Shown here: positions 880 to 40,005 of the stretch, piece by piece
How the letters are laid out: each line of letters opens with the position of its first letter
How positions within the stretch are numbered: position 1 is the stretch's first letter
Assembly: GCF_006345805.1 (NCBI RefSeq)
Contig: NC_042997.1
Span: 1,674,001 to 1,738,000, forward strand
Length of the DNA: 64,000 nucleotides
Source: Octopus sinensis
Lineage: Eukaryota
Direction of reading: 5' to 3'
Notes under the pieces: generated by a model
What the model saw: the letters and a program-made list of their open reading frames with translations, nothing else
Database searches by the model: none
Told to the model about the DNA's origin: nothing
Made by a program: the position numbers and the translations under genes

Positions 880-3759
880 TAGATCATATTGTCTTCATAG
901 ATGTATTCGTATACACAATCATTGTAACTTTTAGTGCTGGCTCGAAATTTTATAGAAAATCTTAGACATACACAAAACTGAGTACACCGCACTGCTAACG
1001 GACATGTAAGATACCATATTGACTTGTAAAGGTTTAATATACTCGGAAGTATATTATTATGTTGGGAAGAGAAATACTATGCAGTCGCCATAAATTAATA
1101 TTTAAGCACAAGTTGCCAGAAATGTGTTTGATATGTAAATTGGTCGATCCAATAATGTTACACTGATAAACTTAATGCCTATTTAATCATTGCCTTCATG
1201 GATAGCTGACGGGTTATAAGTCTTCGTTGATATTTGGTGGATTGGATGTGTTACTAATGAAAGAGCAATAACTCTTGAAATATAAATATACACGCACAAC
1301 CTATTTATTCTATTTATTGTTTACATAGACGTATCTGTATACGAAATCTCGTAACTTTATCTGCTGTCTATGAATTCTATACGAAATTAGTAGAAAAACT
1401 TACACATACACACACGCGCGCGCGGGTGGGCACATATATGTGTGTGTATGTGTGTGTGTACACTATGTTCTATATTGTGCGAAAGTGCGATAACTGAATG
1501 ATGGGAAAATATTCATAAATACTAAAAATAATATTATAGAATGAATATCCAGCACATAGTAGTATAAATGTTACTACTGAAAATGATGAGTGTGACAGCT
1601 TAGCCTCTAAACGCTTCTGAAACCTAAAGACATTGCAGCCAAGGAAATGCGGTGTCAGGTATTTAATAAATCCATTGTTGTGGTCAGAGGAAACGATTGT
1701 GAGGATATGGTTATTATAAAATAGGGATAGAGAGGAGACCCGGAGCAATAAAAGTAAGTTTACAGACTTTACATGTCATCAGATTTTTGGTTTACATTAA
1801 AACTAAAAGAACTGTAGATCATTTGTATACACGAACACACACACGCACACACACACACACACACACACATACACAAATAGACAGACATATTTATTATGTC
1901 GGTATGTGTGCATACATACACGTACAAATACTGTACATCTGCGTTCGTCTTGACAAAATGCATAGGCTCTTACGTAGATATGGAGAATGTGGTCTTATTT
2001 TAACTTCATTCTTTGTTGGATGTATCCTCAGGTAAGTGGAAACAGATTTTGTGTTATAATTCCGCCACACATATTCCGAAACAAATATTGCCAATATTAA
2101 AATGTCTTTATTGAAGTAAGTACTCGCAAAATCACTTCTATATTTCAAATTTTTGCATGGAATATTTTACGTGTACTTATAACTAAGTAAACCATTAAAA
2201 CAACCCTTAACGTTAATATAGATAGACAAGTCATATTTCTTTTTATTTACGCTTTATCTTTACCTCAGAAAAGCATTGTACTCCGTATTATGTTATTGTT
2301 TCATGTTTTATTGACTTCCTGCAGAAATACGTTTGTTATAGTTCAAGATTTTGGAGGCGTTCCCGCTCGAGGACGCCATTTCGTGAATTTATATCTACAT
2401 GAAAATATTTTCTCCATAAAAGAAATATATATATTTCCCCAAAAGGGAAAAGGAATGATTCTTACAATTAAATTTGCACATTGTTTATGGTGTATACATT
2501 TCTTATGCTCTTGTTTGCAACTAAAAGTACAATTTCCAAACACTCGGAGAATTCAACATAGGAGGAGCTCACGGATTTACGCCTACAGAATGCAATTTAA
2601 CAGCAGTAATAACAATAAGAACAACAACGACTACTATAGTAATAGAGTGATACATCTGTCGAAGATACTTAAGTGTGTTCAGCTTTTTAGACGAGATCAA
2701 ATTGATCTCTTCCTTTAACAGAACATGCATCGTATTTACTGCTGTAACTACATTCTTACGAAGTAGCTGTTTAGCTGTTTGGTATTCGATATTCATTGAC
2801 TCTTTTGCTCTTGGAAATATACCAGCTGCGCATCCTCCTCTCTAGCGTTAGAGATCAGGGATGGAGTTTTGGGTATAGGGAGTACATTTTAACGAATATT
2901 GAATGCCTTATTGATGAATTGTAGGAATTAGTGGGAAGAACAATGAGAGACCATAGGATTGATCATATCAGCACAGGTTAAAACCAAGACGACAGTGTGA
3001 CCCAAAGATGAAATTCATTGCTGCAGATACATTGCTTCAAATACACCATTCATGATAGGTTCAGAGCTCATGCACTTAGTGTTCTTTGTCTCTGTGTCAA
3101 CAATAGCAGATGCAGAAGTCGACCAGAACGCTAATTACTTAGAACGAAGGACAAAAGAAAGAGCTCTTGAAACTTGGGAAACAAACATAAATACGGACTA
3201 AAAATGAATAGATCTAGACAAATGTATGAAGCGAGAATATTCGTAAGTGATGTCTTCAATTCACACTAATCCACAACAGAAAAAATTAGTGGTGGAATCC
3301 GCTGAAGCCGGAGAAGGCCAAATGAAATAATATGTAGATTGGAGAGTGAATAGATAGTAAAGAATAACCCCTATTTGAGAGGAAATTAATATCTTCAAGA
3401 TTGTGTAGAACTACTGAATCACACTCCAATTGATACATAGGACTTAACGTTTCAACAGAATAAACTCATGGCATCCGATATAGTGTGGTCATTGGGTACG
3501 CTGACACGAACTATTTATGTAGCAGATGCTTACACACCACATGAAAGAATTTGAATTATTGGCATTTACATGTGTTTTTAGAACTAACGCTTTAACTGAA
3601 TATATCGCAAAGGGCTAAATCCTAACCAATATCCGATATTTTAAAAGCATGTTTCTCCTTTCATGTAACCCTTTTTGTATCGCACGTTTGTATCATCTTC
3701 CATATATACACACAAAACATTTTACTCTTATTCTTATTATCTTTAATGTTGCTGTTGAT

Positions 3760-4004
3760 ATCATCATCATCATCATCATCATTATCATCATCATCATCAT
3801 CATCATCATTATCATCAAAATCATCATTGTTGTTATTATTACTATTATTATTAATACTATTAGTATTTGCAGTGGAAGTAGCATTTGTAGTAATATTAGT
3901 AGTGGTGGTGGTTATAGTGGTGGTGTTCGTAGCAGCAGCAACACCAGCTGCAATAATATTGCTATTGTCGTTGTAGCTGTGGTTATTTGTTTTCTTGATA
4001 GTAT

Positions 4005-4044
<40 letters not shown>

Positions 4045-4055
4045 TAATAATAATA

Positions 4056-4093
<38 letters not shown>

Positions 4094-4094
4094 G

Positions 4095-4126
<32 letters not shown>

Positions 4127-4133
4127 GATTATG

Positions 4134-4180
<47 letters not shown>

Positions 4181-4262
4181 GATTATTACTATTATTATTA
4201 TTATTATTATTATTTTTATTGTTATTATTATTATTTTTATTGTTATTATTATTATTATTATT
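3760..4262. repeat. Compound trinucleotide microsatellite (ATC)n / (AAT)n / (ATT)n
   Basis: Directly visible; (AAT)n switches to (ATT)n near 4055. Confidence 0.95.
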
Positions 4263-4846
4263 TAATCAGATTAGTTTTTGCTGTACCAAATGAATTTCAG
4301 GCAATCTGTTTACCCAATCTGAAATTGTTTTCAGTATTTGCATTATTTCCAGCCCAAAGTGGAGCATATTCGCGGGTTTAAATGTGTTTATTTGATTGTC
4401 ATCATCAATGCTTGAAATGATTTCCCCGAGGATGTTGAAACGTAATCTATGTGGTCTGTATTAAAGGCGAAATAAACATGTTGTATGTGAGAAGTATCTG
4501 AGTATGACGTCAGAACATTATAAAGATAAAAACTGAAAACGTAAAGACTCTGAAGATTTTGGATTTGGTTAAGCATTTAAGAGAGTCACAGGAGGCATTT
4601 TCTCACAAAATGAAAGGGAAATATTATTATAAATATTTTCTCTTGTGAATTAGCAATGATGAGAGCAAACACAGGATAGAAAAGGACTCATAAAAGAGTG
4701 AGAATGGTGTGTGTCAGGACTACATTCTTGCTTTATGTTCTAATCCCATTATGGATGCTTGGCACTCACATGCCTACATACATGCATGCATAAATATACA
4801 AATATACACATATACATATATATGTGTACGTATACCTCTCTCTCTC

Positions 4847-5300
<454 letters not shown>

Positions 5301-5639: not shown

Positions 5640-5834
5640 ATTTACTTGTTTCACTAATTTGATTGCGGCCATCCTGGAGCACCGACTGTAGTTGAATAAA
5701 TTGACCCCAGCACTTATTCTTTGTAAGCCTGGTACTTATTCTGTCGATATCTCTTTTAGAACCGCTAAGTTGCGTGCATGTAAAAAACACCAAAATCGGT
5801 AGTCAAGCGATGGTGGTGGAGACAGATACAGACA

Positions 5835-5891
<57 letters not shown>

Positions 5892-6147
5892 TGTCTGTGT
5901 CTGTCTCCACCACCATCGCTTGACGGCGAGCTGGCAGAAACGTTAGCACGCCGGGCGAGATGCTTAGTGGTATTTCATCTGCCGCTACGCTCTGAGTTCA
6001 AATTCCGCCGAGGTCGACTTTGCCTTTCATCCTTTCGGGGTCGATAAATTAAGTACCAGTTACGCAGTGGGGTCGATATAATCGACTTAATCCATTTGTC
6101 TGTCCTTGTTTGTACCCTCTGTGTTTAGCCCCTTGTGTGTAGTAAAG

Positions 6148-21200: not shown

Positions 21201-21618
21201 TATTTCTTTACTGCCCACAAGTGGCTACACACAATGGGGGCAAACAAGGTCAGACAAACGGATTAAGTCGATTATATCGACCCCAGTGCGCAACTGGTAC
21301 TTATTTAATCGACCCTGAATGTATGAAATGCAATGTCGCCCTCGGCTGAATTTGAACTCAGAACGTAGCGGCAGGCGAAATACCTATTTATTTACTACCC
21401 ACAAGGGGCTAAACACAGAGATTACAAACAAGGAAGGACAACCGAATTAAGTCGATTATATCGACTCCTGTGCGTAACTAGTACTTATTTAATCGACCTC
21501 GAAAGGATGAAAGGCAAAGTCGAACTCGGTGGAATTTGAACTCAGAACGTAGCGGCAGACGAAATAACGCTAAGCATTTCGCCCGGCGTACTAAAGTTTC
21601 TACCAGGACGCCACCTTA
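21201..21618 (-). mobile_element. Tandem (~1.8-mer) family B SINE inside one 16-bp TSD
   Basis: A full copy (~21385-21616) plus a 5'-truncated copy (21201-21384), flanked by AGGGAATGATTTTCCT (21185-21200) and AGGAAATGATTTTCCT (21619-21634). Confidence 0.88.
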
Positions 21619-28580: not shown

Positions 28581-28802
28581 ATGTTTGTGTGTCTGTGTTT
28601 GTGTGTATATGTTTGTGTGTCTGTCCCACACCAGCATCGCTTGACAGCTGATGCCGGTGTGTTTACGTCCCCGCAACGTAGCAGTCCGGCTATAGAGACC
28701 GATAGAGTAAGTACTAGGCGTACAAAGAATAAGTCCTGGGATCAATTTGTTCGACTAAAAAAAGCGGTGCCCCAGCATGACAGCAGTCAAATGATTAAAG
28801 CA
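28282..28802 (+). mobile_element. Family A SINE with expanded internal (TA)n
   Basis: Matches 41376-41775 along head, CCTTGGGCAAG core and tail. Confidence 0.85.
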
Positions 28803-29789: not shown

Positions 29790-29951
29790 TATTACATTAT
29801 TTATATTTGACTGACATTTGTCCTCATATTGTTTGTTGTTAACACCACGTTTCGACTGGTATAAACACCAGCATTAATCATGTGTCTTGGGGAAATTTCG
29901 AACACGAATTCTCACTTCTAAGGTATTTTTCAATGATAATGATGATAGAAC

Positions 29952-29995
<44 letters not shown>

Positions 29996-30072
29996 TCACT
30001 GCCTGGAATCAAACTCGGAATCTTGGGGTTAGTAGCCCGCGCAGTTAACCACTACGCCATATACCCGTGGGC
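29790..30072 (-). mobile_element. tRNA-like head + (AAT)n + decayed hammerhead module
   Basis: Minus strand: TGGCGTAGTGG (A box), GGGCTACTAACCC (anticodon-arm-like), GAGTTTGATTCC (B box), (AAT)n, then GACACATGATTAATGCTGG..CCAGTCGAAACGTGGTGTT, homologous to the intact core at 38165-38210. Confidence 0.8.
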
Positions 30073-30094
30073 AATTGCAGAGTGAATTTTAGTG

Positions 30095-30600
30095 CTTATA
30101 AATCTTATATTTTCTTATCTTTAATACCGGTTCCTGTATGCTATTCATATCTGCACTTGGTCGGCTTAGGAGGTTGTTGTGTCCTAGCATATGTGCTGTT
30201 TCTTTTAGTTTTCGTATTTTCCAGAGATGTATTCTGTCTATTGTTTATCTTCATCCCACGGAGAGAGGTGGTATCCATGTCTGTTGTATCTTTTCGGAGA
30301 GGCTTTTCAGATAGAGTAGACAGGCTGTGGACAGCTTATTGGTTTCATCCTCTCTTTTCTTCATAATTGGAGTGTATAGTATGTGTTTGGGGTAGTTGTT
30401 GCTTAATAGATTGTTACTGAGCTTAATCATTTCTTCTTGGTGGGTATCACAATCGCTACTTATATTCTTTGTAAGAAATTTTGGGCACTGAGCAATTCCT
30501 CTCTTTACACTCTATGGATGATGGGAATTGAAGTTGAGGTATCGTCCAGTGGAGGTCGGCATGCGGTATACGACAAACAGTTGTGGGTTTTACTTTGACT
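30095..30600 (-). mobile_element. Internally deleted PLE ORF end (RT thumb joined to endonuclease C-terminus)
   Basis: Minus strand: TSTGRYLNFNSHHP*SVKRGIAQC, LLSNNYPKHIL, LLYLKSLSEKIQ, then WKIRKLKETAHMLGHNNLLSRP; these are PLE motifs. Confidence 0.82.
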
Positions 30601-37352: not shown

Positions 37353-38064
37353 CTATCAGAAATGTATGCCTATTTATGCCTATCATAAATAAGTCGACTG
37401 GTAGCGCAAATCGACGGCTCACTCTAATTAAATTACCGGGTGAGAGCGCTAAGCAGTGATAATTAAAATGCAATGTTATTACAAATTCGAATATGTTAGA
37501 AGCACACAGTAATTAAATAATAACATATAGCAAAATGTCTTTAAACTTTTAGCTCTTTCTAATATTGTATATTTCTTAAGCCTGGGAGCACTCTCCTGTT
37601 ATATTACGTTTCATCAGACGTATTGACTAGTTAAGACTAGACCCAAATTTGATTCAAGGAGAGATGTGGTATATATTACACATAGTTAATTTCCCTCTAT
37701 AGTTTTGAATATGTAGCTGATTGCTAATTAAATGTACCTCCATAAACTTTTATTTAGTGAGTGGCTAAATTCTGAGAGATTTTCTGGGAAACAGAAAAAA
37801 AATTGACATAAGCATGCATACAATTTTGTTGTGGTTGAACATTCGGGAATTGCGCACCAAAGAAAAGAAGACAATGTTAATGATATAACTAGCATGGAAA
37901 TTCAATATAAGAAGTGAAGAAAGAGCAATGTAATATATTATTTCTAAATTTCGAAAAAAACGTTTTAGATGCAGGCCTTTATAAGAAATGAAATTACTGA
38001 AAAACTTCGGTTTTCAAAACTGTCACACTTAGAAACAAAAACAAGGTTTGAATTGTAGGGAGAA

Positions 38065-38257
38065 TTAAAAATACTACAGTTCTATATTTAAGAGATGAGG
38101 AATTATGTACATTATTTATCTTACTTACAACTGACAGATATTTGTCCTCGTCTTTTTTGTTGTTAACACAACGTTTCGGCTGATATGCCCTCCAGCCTTC
38201 ATCAGGTGTCTTGGAGAAATTTTGAACCTGGGTTCTCATTCCTAATGTACTTTTCGA

Positions 38258-38297
<40 letters not shown>

Positions 38298-38352
38298 GGT
38301 TAAAAATGCGGGCCACTAACCCCAAGATTCCGAGTTCGATTCCTGGCAGTGA

Positions 38353-38424
<72 letters not shown>

Positions 38425-38554
38425 AAACAATGATAATAACAACAACAATAACAGAAACAACAACAAAAATAGCAACAACAACAACAAAAACAACAACAAC
38501 AACGACAACGACAACAACGACAACAACAACAACAACAACAATAATAATAATAAC

Positions 38555-38595
<41 letters not shown>

Positions 38596-38748
38596 TAATA
38601 ATGATAACATCGAAAAATACCTTAGGAATGATAAATTTCCCTAAGACAGCTGATGAAGGCTGGAGGGTGTATCAAGCGAAAGGTTGTGTTAACAATAAAC
38701 TAGATGAGGGCAGATATCCGTCAATTGTAAATAATGTAAATAATGCAT
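38065..38748. mobile_element. Head-to-head pair of tRNA/(AAT)n/hammerhead modules
   Basis: Minus copy 38065-38295 ((AAT)n, HHR, tail) abuts plus copy 38296-38748 (5'-clipped tRNA-like head with GAGTTCGATTCC, (AAT/AAC)n, HHR-like CTGATGA...GAAA at 38650-38681). Confidence 0.85.
38165..38210 (-). ncRNA. Minimal type I hammerhead ribozyme, core boxes intact
   Basis: Minus strand GACAC-CTGATGA-A-GGCTG-gagggcatat-CAGCC-GAAAC-GTT-GTGTT: stem I GACAC/GUGUU, stem II GGCUG/CAGCC, loopless palindromic stem III (AACGUU) as in PLE-associated minimal HHRs; triplet GUU. Confidence 0.8.
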
Positions 38749-39247
38749 TAAAAAGACTGTTTTAAACACTTTGAGCAGTAAATATCAGTGATCTTGAGTT
38801 TTCCAATAGTAACGAAGCAATGACAATACAAATCACACGAATCAGTTCTGAAGACACGAGACAGAACTTGAAAAGATATAATGGAAGTATCGAAACCCTC
38901 ATAAGCACAAAAGGTTTTTGAGATGACAATCGTTTTGTTATATATTGTTGTGTGTTTGTCCATTTATTTATTCAAAAATATATATTTCGTGTTTATCATC
39001 GGTATAAATCTACCAAAATACGATTAGCTTTTAAATATATCGTGCATATATACACACACATACTCACACATAAATATACACCCACGTAAATATATCCTGC
39101 ATATATCCAAGCACACATACACGCGCATAGACGCCATTTTTCTTACAATCAAACACACACACACACACACGCTCACACACACACACACGCTCACACACAC
39201 CACACACGCTCACACACACACACACACACGCTCACACACACACACAG

Positions 39248-39600: not shown

Positions 39601-40005
39601 CTCTTACACTTTTAACTGATTCAGTCATTTGGATGTGGCCATGCTGGAGCACCGCCTATAGTCGAGCAAATCGACCTCAGGACTTATTCTTTGTAGGCCT
39701 AGTACTAATTCTATCGATCCCTTTTTCGAAACTGCTAAGTTACGGGGACGTAAAAGCACCAGCATCGGTTGTCAAGCGATGTTGGAGGGGACAAGCACAG
39801 AAACACAAACACACACACACACACACATATACACATATATATGGCGGGCTTCTTTCAGTTTCCGTCTACCAAATCCACTCACAAGACTTTGGTCGGCCCA
39901 AGTCTATATTAGAAGTGACTTGCCCAAGGTGCCACGCATTGGGACTGAACCCGGAACTATGCGGTTCGTTAACAAGCTACTTACCACACAGCCACTCCTA
40001 TGCCT
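39601..40005 (-). mobile_element. Family A SINE, full length
   Basis: Reverse complement of 41376-41775. Confidence 0.9.

Follow-up and report, generated by a model that had tools for sequence, protein, structure and literature searches.

The window, a stretch of 64,000 nucleotides of octopus DNA, contains two insertions of one PLE family (Table 1). On the minus strand at 29792-30572 lies what we call the window copy, a dead, truncated and internally deleted member of a Penelope/Poseidon-type family. An earlier note on this DNA had read here an ORF, a tRNA-like head, an (AAT)n run and a hammerhead-homologous segment in that order, and all of these parts are in place. The RT-thumb motifs (TGRYLNFNSHHP and NNYPK) translate in a single frame, and the few tens of base pairs that the note placed between the endonuclease C-terminus and the head are the TAA stop followed by 29 nt. 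The ORF remnant carries several stops and frameshifts, and about 245 bp are missing at about 30276, where family copies continue across the gap; the GIY-YIG core is gone. We regard the copy as dead because its B box has a T where the family has a C (GTTTGATTCC) and because both the core and the cleavage triplet of its hammerhead are mutated. We looked for a target-site duplication around the copy and found none. The TATA-like motif at its ORF end is a possible Pol II or upstream Pol III element. Together with the first bases of the head, the TGCCCAC that closes the spacer forms a short palindrome, which is used for fold-back junctions.

The note had also seen the head/spacer/hammerhead module recur further along. 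This recurrence is real (87% identity to the window copy in the head and 73% in the tail), except that the first 18 nt of the head are absent and that the module is a single arm of a head-to-head insertion (38075-38745) that carries the tail on one side only. Elsewhere in the window we observed a further abundant short repeat, probably a SINE, in two copies that terminate in microsatellites (28590-28790, minus strand; 39630-39800, plus strand), two tandem copies of a SINE-like 184-bp repeat (21201-21566, 83% match) and a near-perfect palindrome around (TA)n (5802-5924) with a spurious Rfam match to MIR810. Rfam microRNA matches in the window are microsatellite artefacts.

Table 1. Features of the two insertions, in window coordinates.
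Feature	Position	Strand	Remark
PLE ORF remnant, 5'-truncated: RT thumb, linker, endonuclease C-terminus	30096..30572	-	88-89% identity to family copies
Stop codon TAA of the ORF	30098-30096	-	
TATA-like TATAAG	30095..30100	-	overlaps stop codon; -34 to -29 from head +1
29-nt spacer, ORF stop to head	30067..30095	-	3' end TGCCCAC
Head, apparently tRNA-derived	29993..30066	-	start of pLTR; cloverleaf decayed
A box of head	30059-30049	-	
B box of head	30014-30005	-	damaged in window copy
(AAT)n spacer	29952..29991	-	length varies between copies
pLTR 3' part	29792..29951	-	ends at first of two PLE end points; without optional 33-nt tail
Position of the family's likely start codon	29915-29913	-	GTG in window copy
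Predicted minimal type I hammerhead segment	29886-29841	-	core mutated in window copy
Left target-site duplication, second insertion	38064..38075	+	11/12 identical to 38747-38758
Inverted arm: (AAT)n, hammerhead, 33-nt tail	38075..38297	-	
Hammerhead of inverted arm	38210-38165	-	core intact
Forward arm	38294..38745	+	without 33-nt tail
Head of forward arm	38294-38356	+	starts at +19
(AAY)n of forward arm	38357-38607	+	
Hammerhead of forward arm	38645-38690	+	
Right target-site duplication, second insertion	38747..38758	+	

Anatomy and size of the family

Family-wide, the unit consists of an RT/GIY-YIG ORF, a stop codon, 29 nt, the head, (AAT)n, a minimal hammerhead and a PLE tail. One long copy (L020) has an open frame of 551 aa with RT and endonuclease motifs. 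Its translation matched no family in Pfam, and a profile search gave weak matches to telomerase and group II-like RTs; homologues of the ORF protein at 56-68% identity carry RVT_1 (E 1e-11 to 6e-11), and one of them, P0003, shows a weak C-terminal GIY-YIG (E 0.23). The family, with the window copy lacking the GIY-YIG core, thus has the single ORF with RT and C-terminal GIY-YIG of EN+ PLEs. In the translations of L020 and L010 we saw by eye no extra Zn-finger linker of the Neptune/Nematis type, and these endonuclease features would place the family with the Penelope/Poseidon type. Identity to the majority line is 86-95% among the 22 long copies, and no copy that we found is intact over its full length. 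Beside family copies, at L016:2145-2672 and L028:1717-2430, lie fragments of a different PLE-type endonuclease, presumably Naiad- or Neptune-like from their motifs.

We identify the module as the pLTR because in two copies (L060 and L052) it stands both upstream and downstream of the ORF, as in EN+ PLEs, and its tail continues in frame into the ORF N-terminus. L060 is a partial tandem whose upstream repeat starts at head position -2. The frame that runs from the tail into the ORF crosses the hammerhead, and the peptide encoded there is conserved in the 56%-identical relative P0003, whose residues 18-128 are 45% identical to L295. The related proteins P0003, P0149 and P0120 begin with a peptide (PDDG...KR/RR) for which the hammerhead itself seems to code, and only after this peptide do P0031, P0033 and most insect-like matches begin. 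In the anole element PAc the ORF is likewise described as beginning within the hammerhead (PMC11167929).

The hammerhead was identified by eye from its core, stems and ACGT palindrome, which we saw in 30 copies. Rfam gave no match to it and energy folding as monomer or dimer did not recover it; from its parts it is a minimal type I hammerhead and a predicted ribozyme. Other repeats have often inserted later into the (AAT)n spacer (one is common to L066 and L159, a second to L127 and L156; L134 is a further case), and the spacer may also be a self-target, because the PAc endonuclease prefers ATT.

The head is probably tRNA-derived, a reading that draws on its boxes and its identities to host tRNAs. 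We take the boxes to be A and B from their match to the box consensus; in the family-majority head both are intact while the stems have decayed. Alignments to host tRNAs give 41-47 identities over 75-77 positions (z 3.8-7.8 against shuffles) and lie far above shuffles for most of the host tRNAs compared. The family therefore shares with tRNA-derived SINEs a tRNA-related head with A and B boxes. Of the tRNA-like sequence that the earlier note described, the boxes are present; neither ARAGORN nor Rfam calls the head a tRNA, and the cloverleaf is not formed (z 0.06 for its fold). An Asn-like anticodon arm could not be upheld: across the 8 amino acids and 11 anticodon classes sampled, Cys, Asn, Ala and Thr tie at 47 with Arg at 46, and our attempt to assign an isotype failed on these tied scores. 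About 14 tRNA-Asn-like genes are clustered within 43 kb elsewhere in the genome (G000:C18:42005216-42047824).

A 31-mer from the head has 1019 exact matches in G000 and a 35-mer from the hammerhead has 1463, against 0 for either reversed control, so that neither is a chance resemblance. The ORF-end 31-mer, from the sequence that bears the TATA-like motif, has 487, and true ORF-head junctions have 463. Among ORF-linked copies the exact pattern is retained in 1/34 heads and 15/49 ORF ends. From these rates we estimate the number of ORF ends at roughly 1,600 and that of heads, as an order of magnitude only, at tens of thousands. A search of G000 for diverged PLE subfamilies, made with a protein of 43% identity, gave 30 loci, and all of them proved to be the head-bearing family itself. 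Seven of these 30 stop short of the ORF end; in the remaining 23, the head follows the ORF end in 22, four of which look like duplicates of one locus.

Seen from the head, linkage to the ORF is rarer. Taking the 1019 matches in order of position, we sampled the first 70 loci, which gave 72 distinct heads (three pairs are arms of one insertion). A hammerhead tail lies downstream of 64; the other eight have none within 900 nt and share no common body, except two with the same unrelated repeat after a microsatellite. The ORF lies upstream of only eight heads (seven run more than 30 nt into it and one is joined across a deletion). In 41, the sequence immediately before the head is an inverted piece. 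The earlier note had suggested counting how often ORF sequence directly precedes the module, and the answer is divided: few heads follow an ORF, yet nearly all ORF ends enter a head. The note's other concern, that the head might occur mostly alone with its own target-site duplications, was not borne out, since most heads have the tail and the duplications flank whole insertions. Its proposal of a PLE whose pLTR carries a tRNA-type head fits this anatomy, including the head upstream of the ORF in L060. The sequence is present in five organisms, and contigs bridge ORF end and head in all three other organisms examined for this (C, D and E).

Ends of the short copies

Copies of the module end preferentially at the start of the head. 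Of the 55 that extend as far as head position +10, 47 stop within the interval from +10 to -17, compared with 20% predicted by the rate of truncation at +11 to +43 (p about 1e-24 if copies are independent). We examined 48 short copies, five of them without a clean start. Not one of the 43 that could be classified retains true upstream sequence of 9 nt or more. Fold-back at the palindrome accounts for 11 of them, and the other 32 begin at about -7 to +7. By eye, most 5' junctions have no extra G before them. In organisms C, D and E, the commonest contig break upstream of the head, among the breaks listed, is at head +2 (116, 83 and 84 contigs). Exact matches to the fold-back palindromes number 476 in G000, about equal to the true ORF-head junctions.

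For the 3' ends we used 121 tails, from the 72 sampled heads and from 30 loci anchored on the hammerhead. The first end point is where 63 of them stop; 53 have a further 33 nt, five are unclassified and none runs into the ORF. The optional 30-40 bp tail and the inverted 5' pieces of EN+ PLEs are therefore both found here (53/121 tails, 41/72 heads). Target-site duplications flank 23 of 33 whole mirror insertions, compared with 6% in mismatched pairs, and were seen at only 3 of 12 non-inverted short copies. At L057 (oriented 700-900), upstream of a long ORF copy, an ORF end is joined straight to a tail with short microhomology and the head is missing.

The reading that fits these short copies best is that the PLE enzyme inserted them as solo pLTRs and that they are not an independent SINE. 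The earlier note had offered, as its alternative, a SINE-like partner mobilised by a PLE through its ribozyme-bearing tail. Its first half lacks support: leaving out of account the fold-back junction and the bias from pattern selection, we saw no diagnostic positions that separate 102 short heads from 56 ORF-linked ones, and the independent, non-autonomous lineage of a tRNA-derived SINE is not seen. The second half is not supported either, as copies end 50-90 nt beyond the hammerhead cleavage site. Nor do we find the tandem short units with cleavage-set ends of retrozymes and Sm-alpha: copies are single or head-to-head, and in our samples we noticed no short units arrayed in tandem.

Likely start of the template RNA and candidate promoters

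Because copy ends, the start of the L060 repeat and the contig breaks all cluster at the head start, we infer a start of the template RNA there, at about -7 to +1 and thus some 7-14 nt before the A box. In the mechanism that we propose, the tRNA-derived head opens the pLTR and would act as an internal Pol III-type promoter; we give about even credence to its serving the whole element in this way. The element's own RT would start cDNA at two points in the tail, as in anole PAc. A start at the tail adjoining the RNA 5' end would yield short head-to-tail copies (solo pLTRs, about 90% of heads), a start at the tail behind the ORF would yield ORF-bearing copies such as the window copy, and two opposed cDNAs, or fold-back at the palindrome, would yield mirror insertions.

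The unit has no TTTT, and therefore Pol III would not be expected to stop inside it. On the sense strand of the 2651-nt majority line, a base shuffle predicts 4.9 such runs (P 0.007), a dinucleotide model 2.4 (P 0.09) and a synonymous shuffle of the 705 codons 2.5 (P 0.045). The 22 natural copies, which are not independent, hold 19 runs where about 92 are expected; L020 by itself is unremarkable (2 runs, P 0.46). In relatives of 29-49% identity from metagenome contigs, which served as controls, TTTT is absent from 1 of 28 non-redundant ORFs and 0 of 11 pLTRs, and A and B boxes together occur in 0 of 11 non-redundant pLTRs (loose scan) and 0 of 65 flanks (strict scan, many of the flanks short). 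ARAGORN at a lowered threshold on these relatives returned 1099 noise calls, which we discarded. As a sign of Pol III, the TTTT depletion is suggestive and becomes weaker under codon-aware nulls. One relative (L178, 48%) is a counter-example to reading it in this way, because it has a TTTT-free ORF stretch (3001-4906) and no tRNA head; its pLTR (4920-5300) is T-rich.

It is tempting to speculate that a protein-coding retrotransposon is here transcribed end to end by Pol III: a captured tRNA promoter would have replaced the pLTR promoter, the 2.65-kb unit would have been purged of TTTT, the protein would be made from uncapped RNA, and the same promoter would have spawned tens of thousands of SINE-like solo repeats. 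We regard this full version as possible, if rather doubtful. Pol III RNA is uncapped and uncapped RNA translates poorly, so that such an RNA is hard to square with translation.

The RNA data say little about the choice. Runs X21-X23 from organism B (unstranded, host-dominated, about 6% of each run examined) gave no start, end or splice signal at the module, and the run search listed no RNA dataset holding the module sequence. On run X19 of organism E, L070:1265-1720 shows variants at about 33-57% depth in the ORF end and head (1305, 1341, 1433, 1444 and 1504; none of those listed falls in the boxes), which suggest a second subfamily that keeps the head.

A capped RNA would be translatable, and Pol II could start at the same place through the TATA-like motif, supplied by a tandem copy whose ORF ends just upstream. 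The tRNA-like piece would then be a captured SINE head that serves as 5' UTR or contributes solely through TFIIIC binding. The motif, at -34 to -29, predicts a start there and fits starts at about -6 to +1. In the relative L183, CCAAT-like and TATA-like motifs precede the pLTR hammerhead (2450-2700), which suggests a Pol II promoter in pLTRs of this clade, and the Penelope promoter is described as internal and LINE-like (PMC2377424); the TTTT signal, as we have seen, is weak under codon-aware nulls. However, copies that start at the head lose the TATA, so partial tandems of the L060 type could not restart, and we saw no clean tandem of ORF end, head and ORF among copies with an intact N-terminus. 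The scarcity of extra G at 5' junctions and a pLTR free of TTTT, unlike 11 of 11 relatives, also speak against Pol II, and we think this account unlikely.

A division of labour, in which Pol III makes nothing but short head-to-tail RNAs from solo copies that PLE protein copies in trans as a SINE-like parasite, and Pol II or host read-through supplies the ORF mRNA, would suit the roughly 90% of heads that have no ORF. Internal RT initiation would trim any flank, so that solo copies could self-propagate, and Sm-alpha and the retrozymes, the latter as non-autonomous PLE derivatives, offer precedents. Against this are the lack of any diagnostic difference between short and ORF-linked heads, an ORF free of TTTT, which is left unexplained, and the failure to notice tandem arrays of the short unit. 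We consider this quite improbable.

Junctions might gather at the head start simply because of the palindrome there, and it is conceivable that no RNA starts there at all: read-through RNA would be copied and the cDNA would stop, fold back or pair with an opposed cDNA at the palindrome, or RNase P would cut the tRNA-like fold, leaving the head without a promoter role. The near-equal counts of fold-back palindromes and true junctions, and the inverted pieces directly upstream of 41/72 copies, are in keeping with this. Yet the palindrome stem is just 4-5 bp, 32 of 43 short copies end at the head start without fold-back, the ends spread over -7 to +7 and not over one base, and the head has no tRNA fold. 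We think this very unlikely. Independent SINE insertions beside PLE remnants, which the eight tail-less heads might recall, are refuted by the junction counts (22/23 ORF ends, 463 exact matches), by the junction-bridging contigs of three other organisms and by the absence of a shared body in those eight heads, bar the two with the same unrelated repeat.

Relation to known elements

Several parts of this architecture have precedents. Minimal hammerheads in PLE pLTRs are already known (PMC4209133), as are optional tails and inverted 5' pieces (PMC8557442), and in PAc the RT initiates internally, the PLE tail lying between two internal start sites (PMC11167929). Like Anolis PAc (PMC11167929) and D. 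virilis Penelope (PMC2377424), the octopus family has one ORF with RT and C-terminal GIY-YIG, a pLTR hammerhead that overlaps the beginning of the ORF, 3' ends at two points some 33 nt from each other, inverted 5' pieces and a promoter sited, on our reading, in the pLTR. What sets it apart is a pLTR free of TTTT, in which a tRNA-derived A/B-box head and the (AAT)n run come first. The parts of those two papers available to us mention no tRNA head, and the Penelope promoter is said to resemble TATA-less LINE promoters (PMC2377424).

The earlier note knew of no description of this combination, which holds in part. A Pol III promoter with a hammerhead has already been described in Sm-alpha of Schistosoma (PMC6765202, PMC2770079), and Sm-alpha and Sj-alpha share with the octopus module a tRNA-related Pol III promoter followed by a hammerhead, and a high copy number. 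Those elements, however, are non-coding, often tandem and without an ORF, and are said to be freed by ribozyme cleavage, whereas the octopus module is the terminal repeat of an ORF-bearing element, with a minimal hammerhead and ends set by the PLE tail positions. Retrozymes have been presented as PLE derivatives (bioRxiv 10.64898/2026.07.22.740005; PMC7229834). The non-LTR retrozymes are likewise short non-coding units with a type I hammerhead and a proposed origin in PLE pLTRs, but they form tandem repeats that give circular RNA, unlike the single or head-to-head octopus copies. In the main text of that preprint, as far as available, the words tRNA, Pol III and promoter do not occur. With tRNA-derived SINEs, including octopus OK, OR1 and OR2 (PMC4758252), the family shares a degenerate tRNA head with A and B boxes kept and 5' ends at the head start; set against tRNA-derived SINEs as a class, it has no LINE-type tail, bears PLE insertion marks and forms no separate subfamily.

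In the literature searched we found no tRNA-headed, ORF-bearing PLE, though Repbase, Dfam or preprint supplements may already hold the family; the parts available of cephalopod and mollusc repeat papers and of PMC6570551 mention no such element. The architecture is real and shared across this Penelope/Poseidon-type family, and there are good grounds for a putative promoter role of its head.

PLE transcription and promoter regeneration are poorly known outside Drosophila. Here the copy ends mark a likely start site that coincides with a tRNA-type promoter, which makes the family a testable case of promoter capture. A tRNA-headed PLE is also a candidate origin for elements that combine Pol III and a hammerhead, such as Sm-alpha. 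It warns, too, that in genomes of this kind solo pLTRs may account for many of the repeats now annotated as tRNA SINEs. Pol III transcripts as a rule do not code for the protein that mobilises them, and the family would break this rule if its coding RNA, too, is made by Pol III; if the element were indeed read end to end by Pol III, a Penelope element could give rise directly to a SINE.
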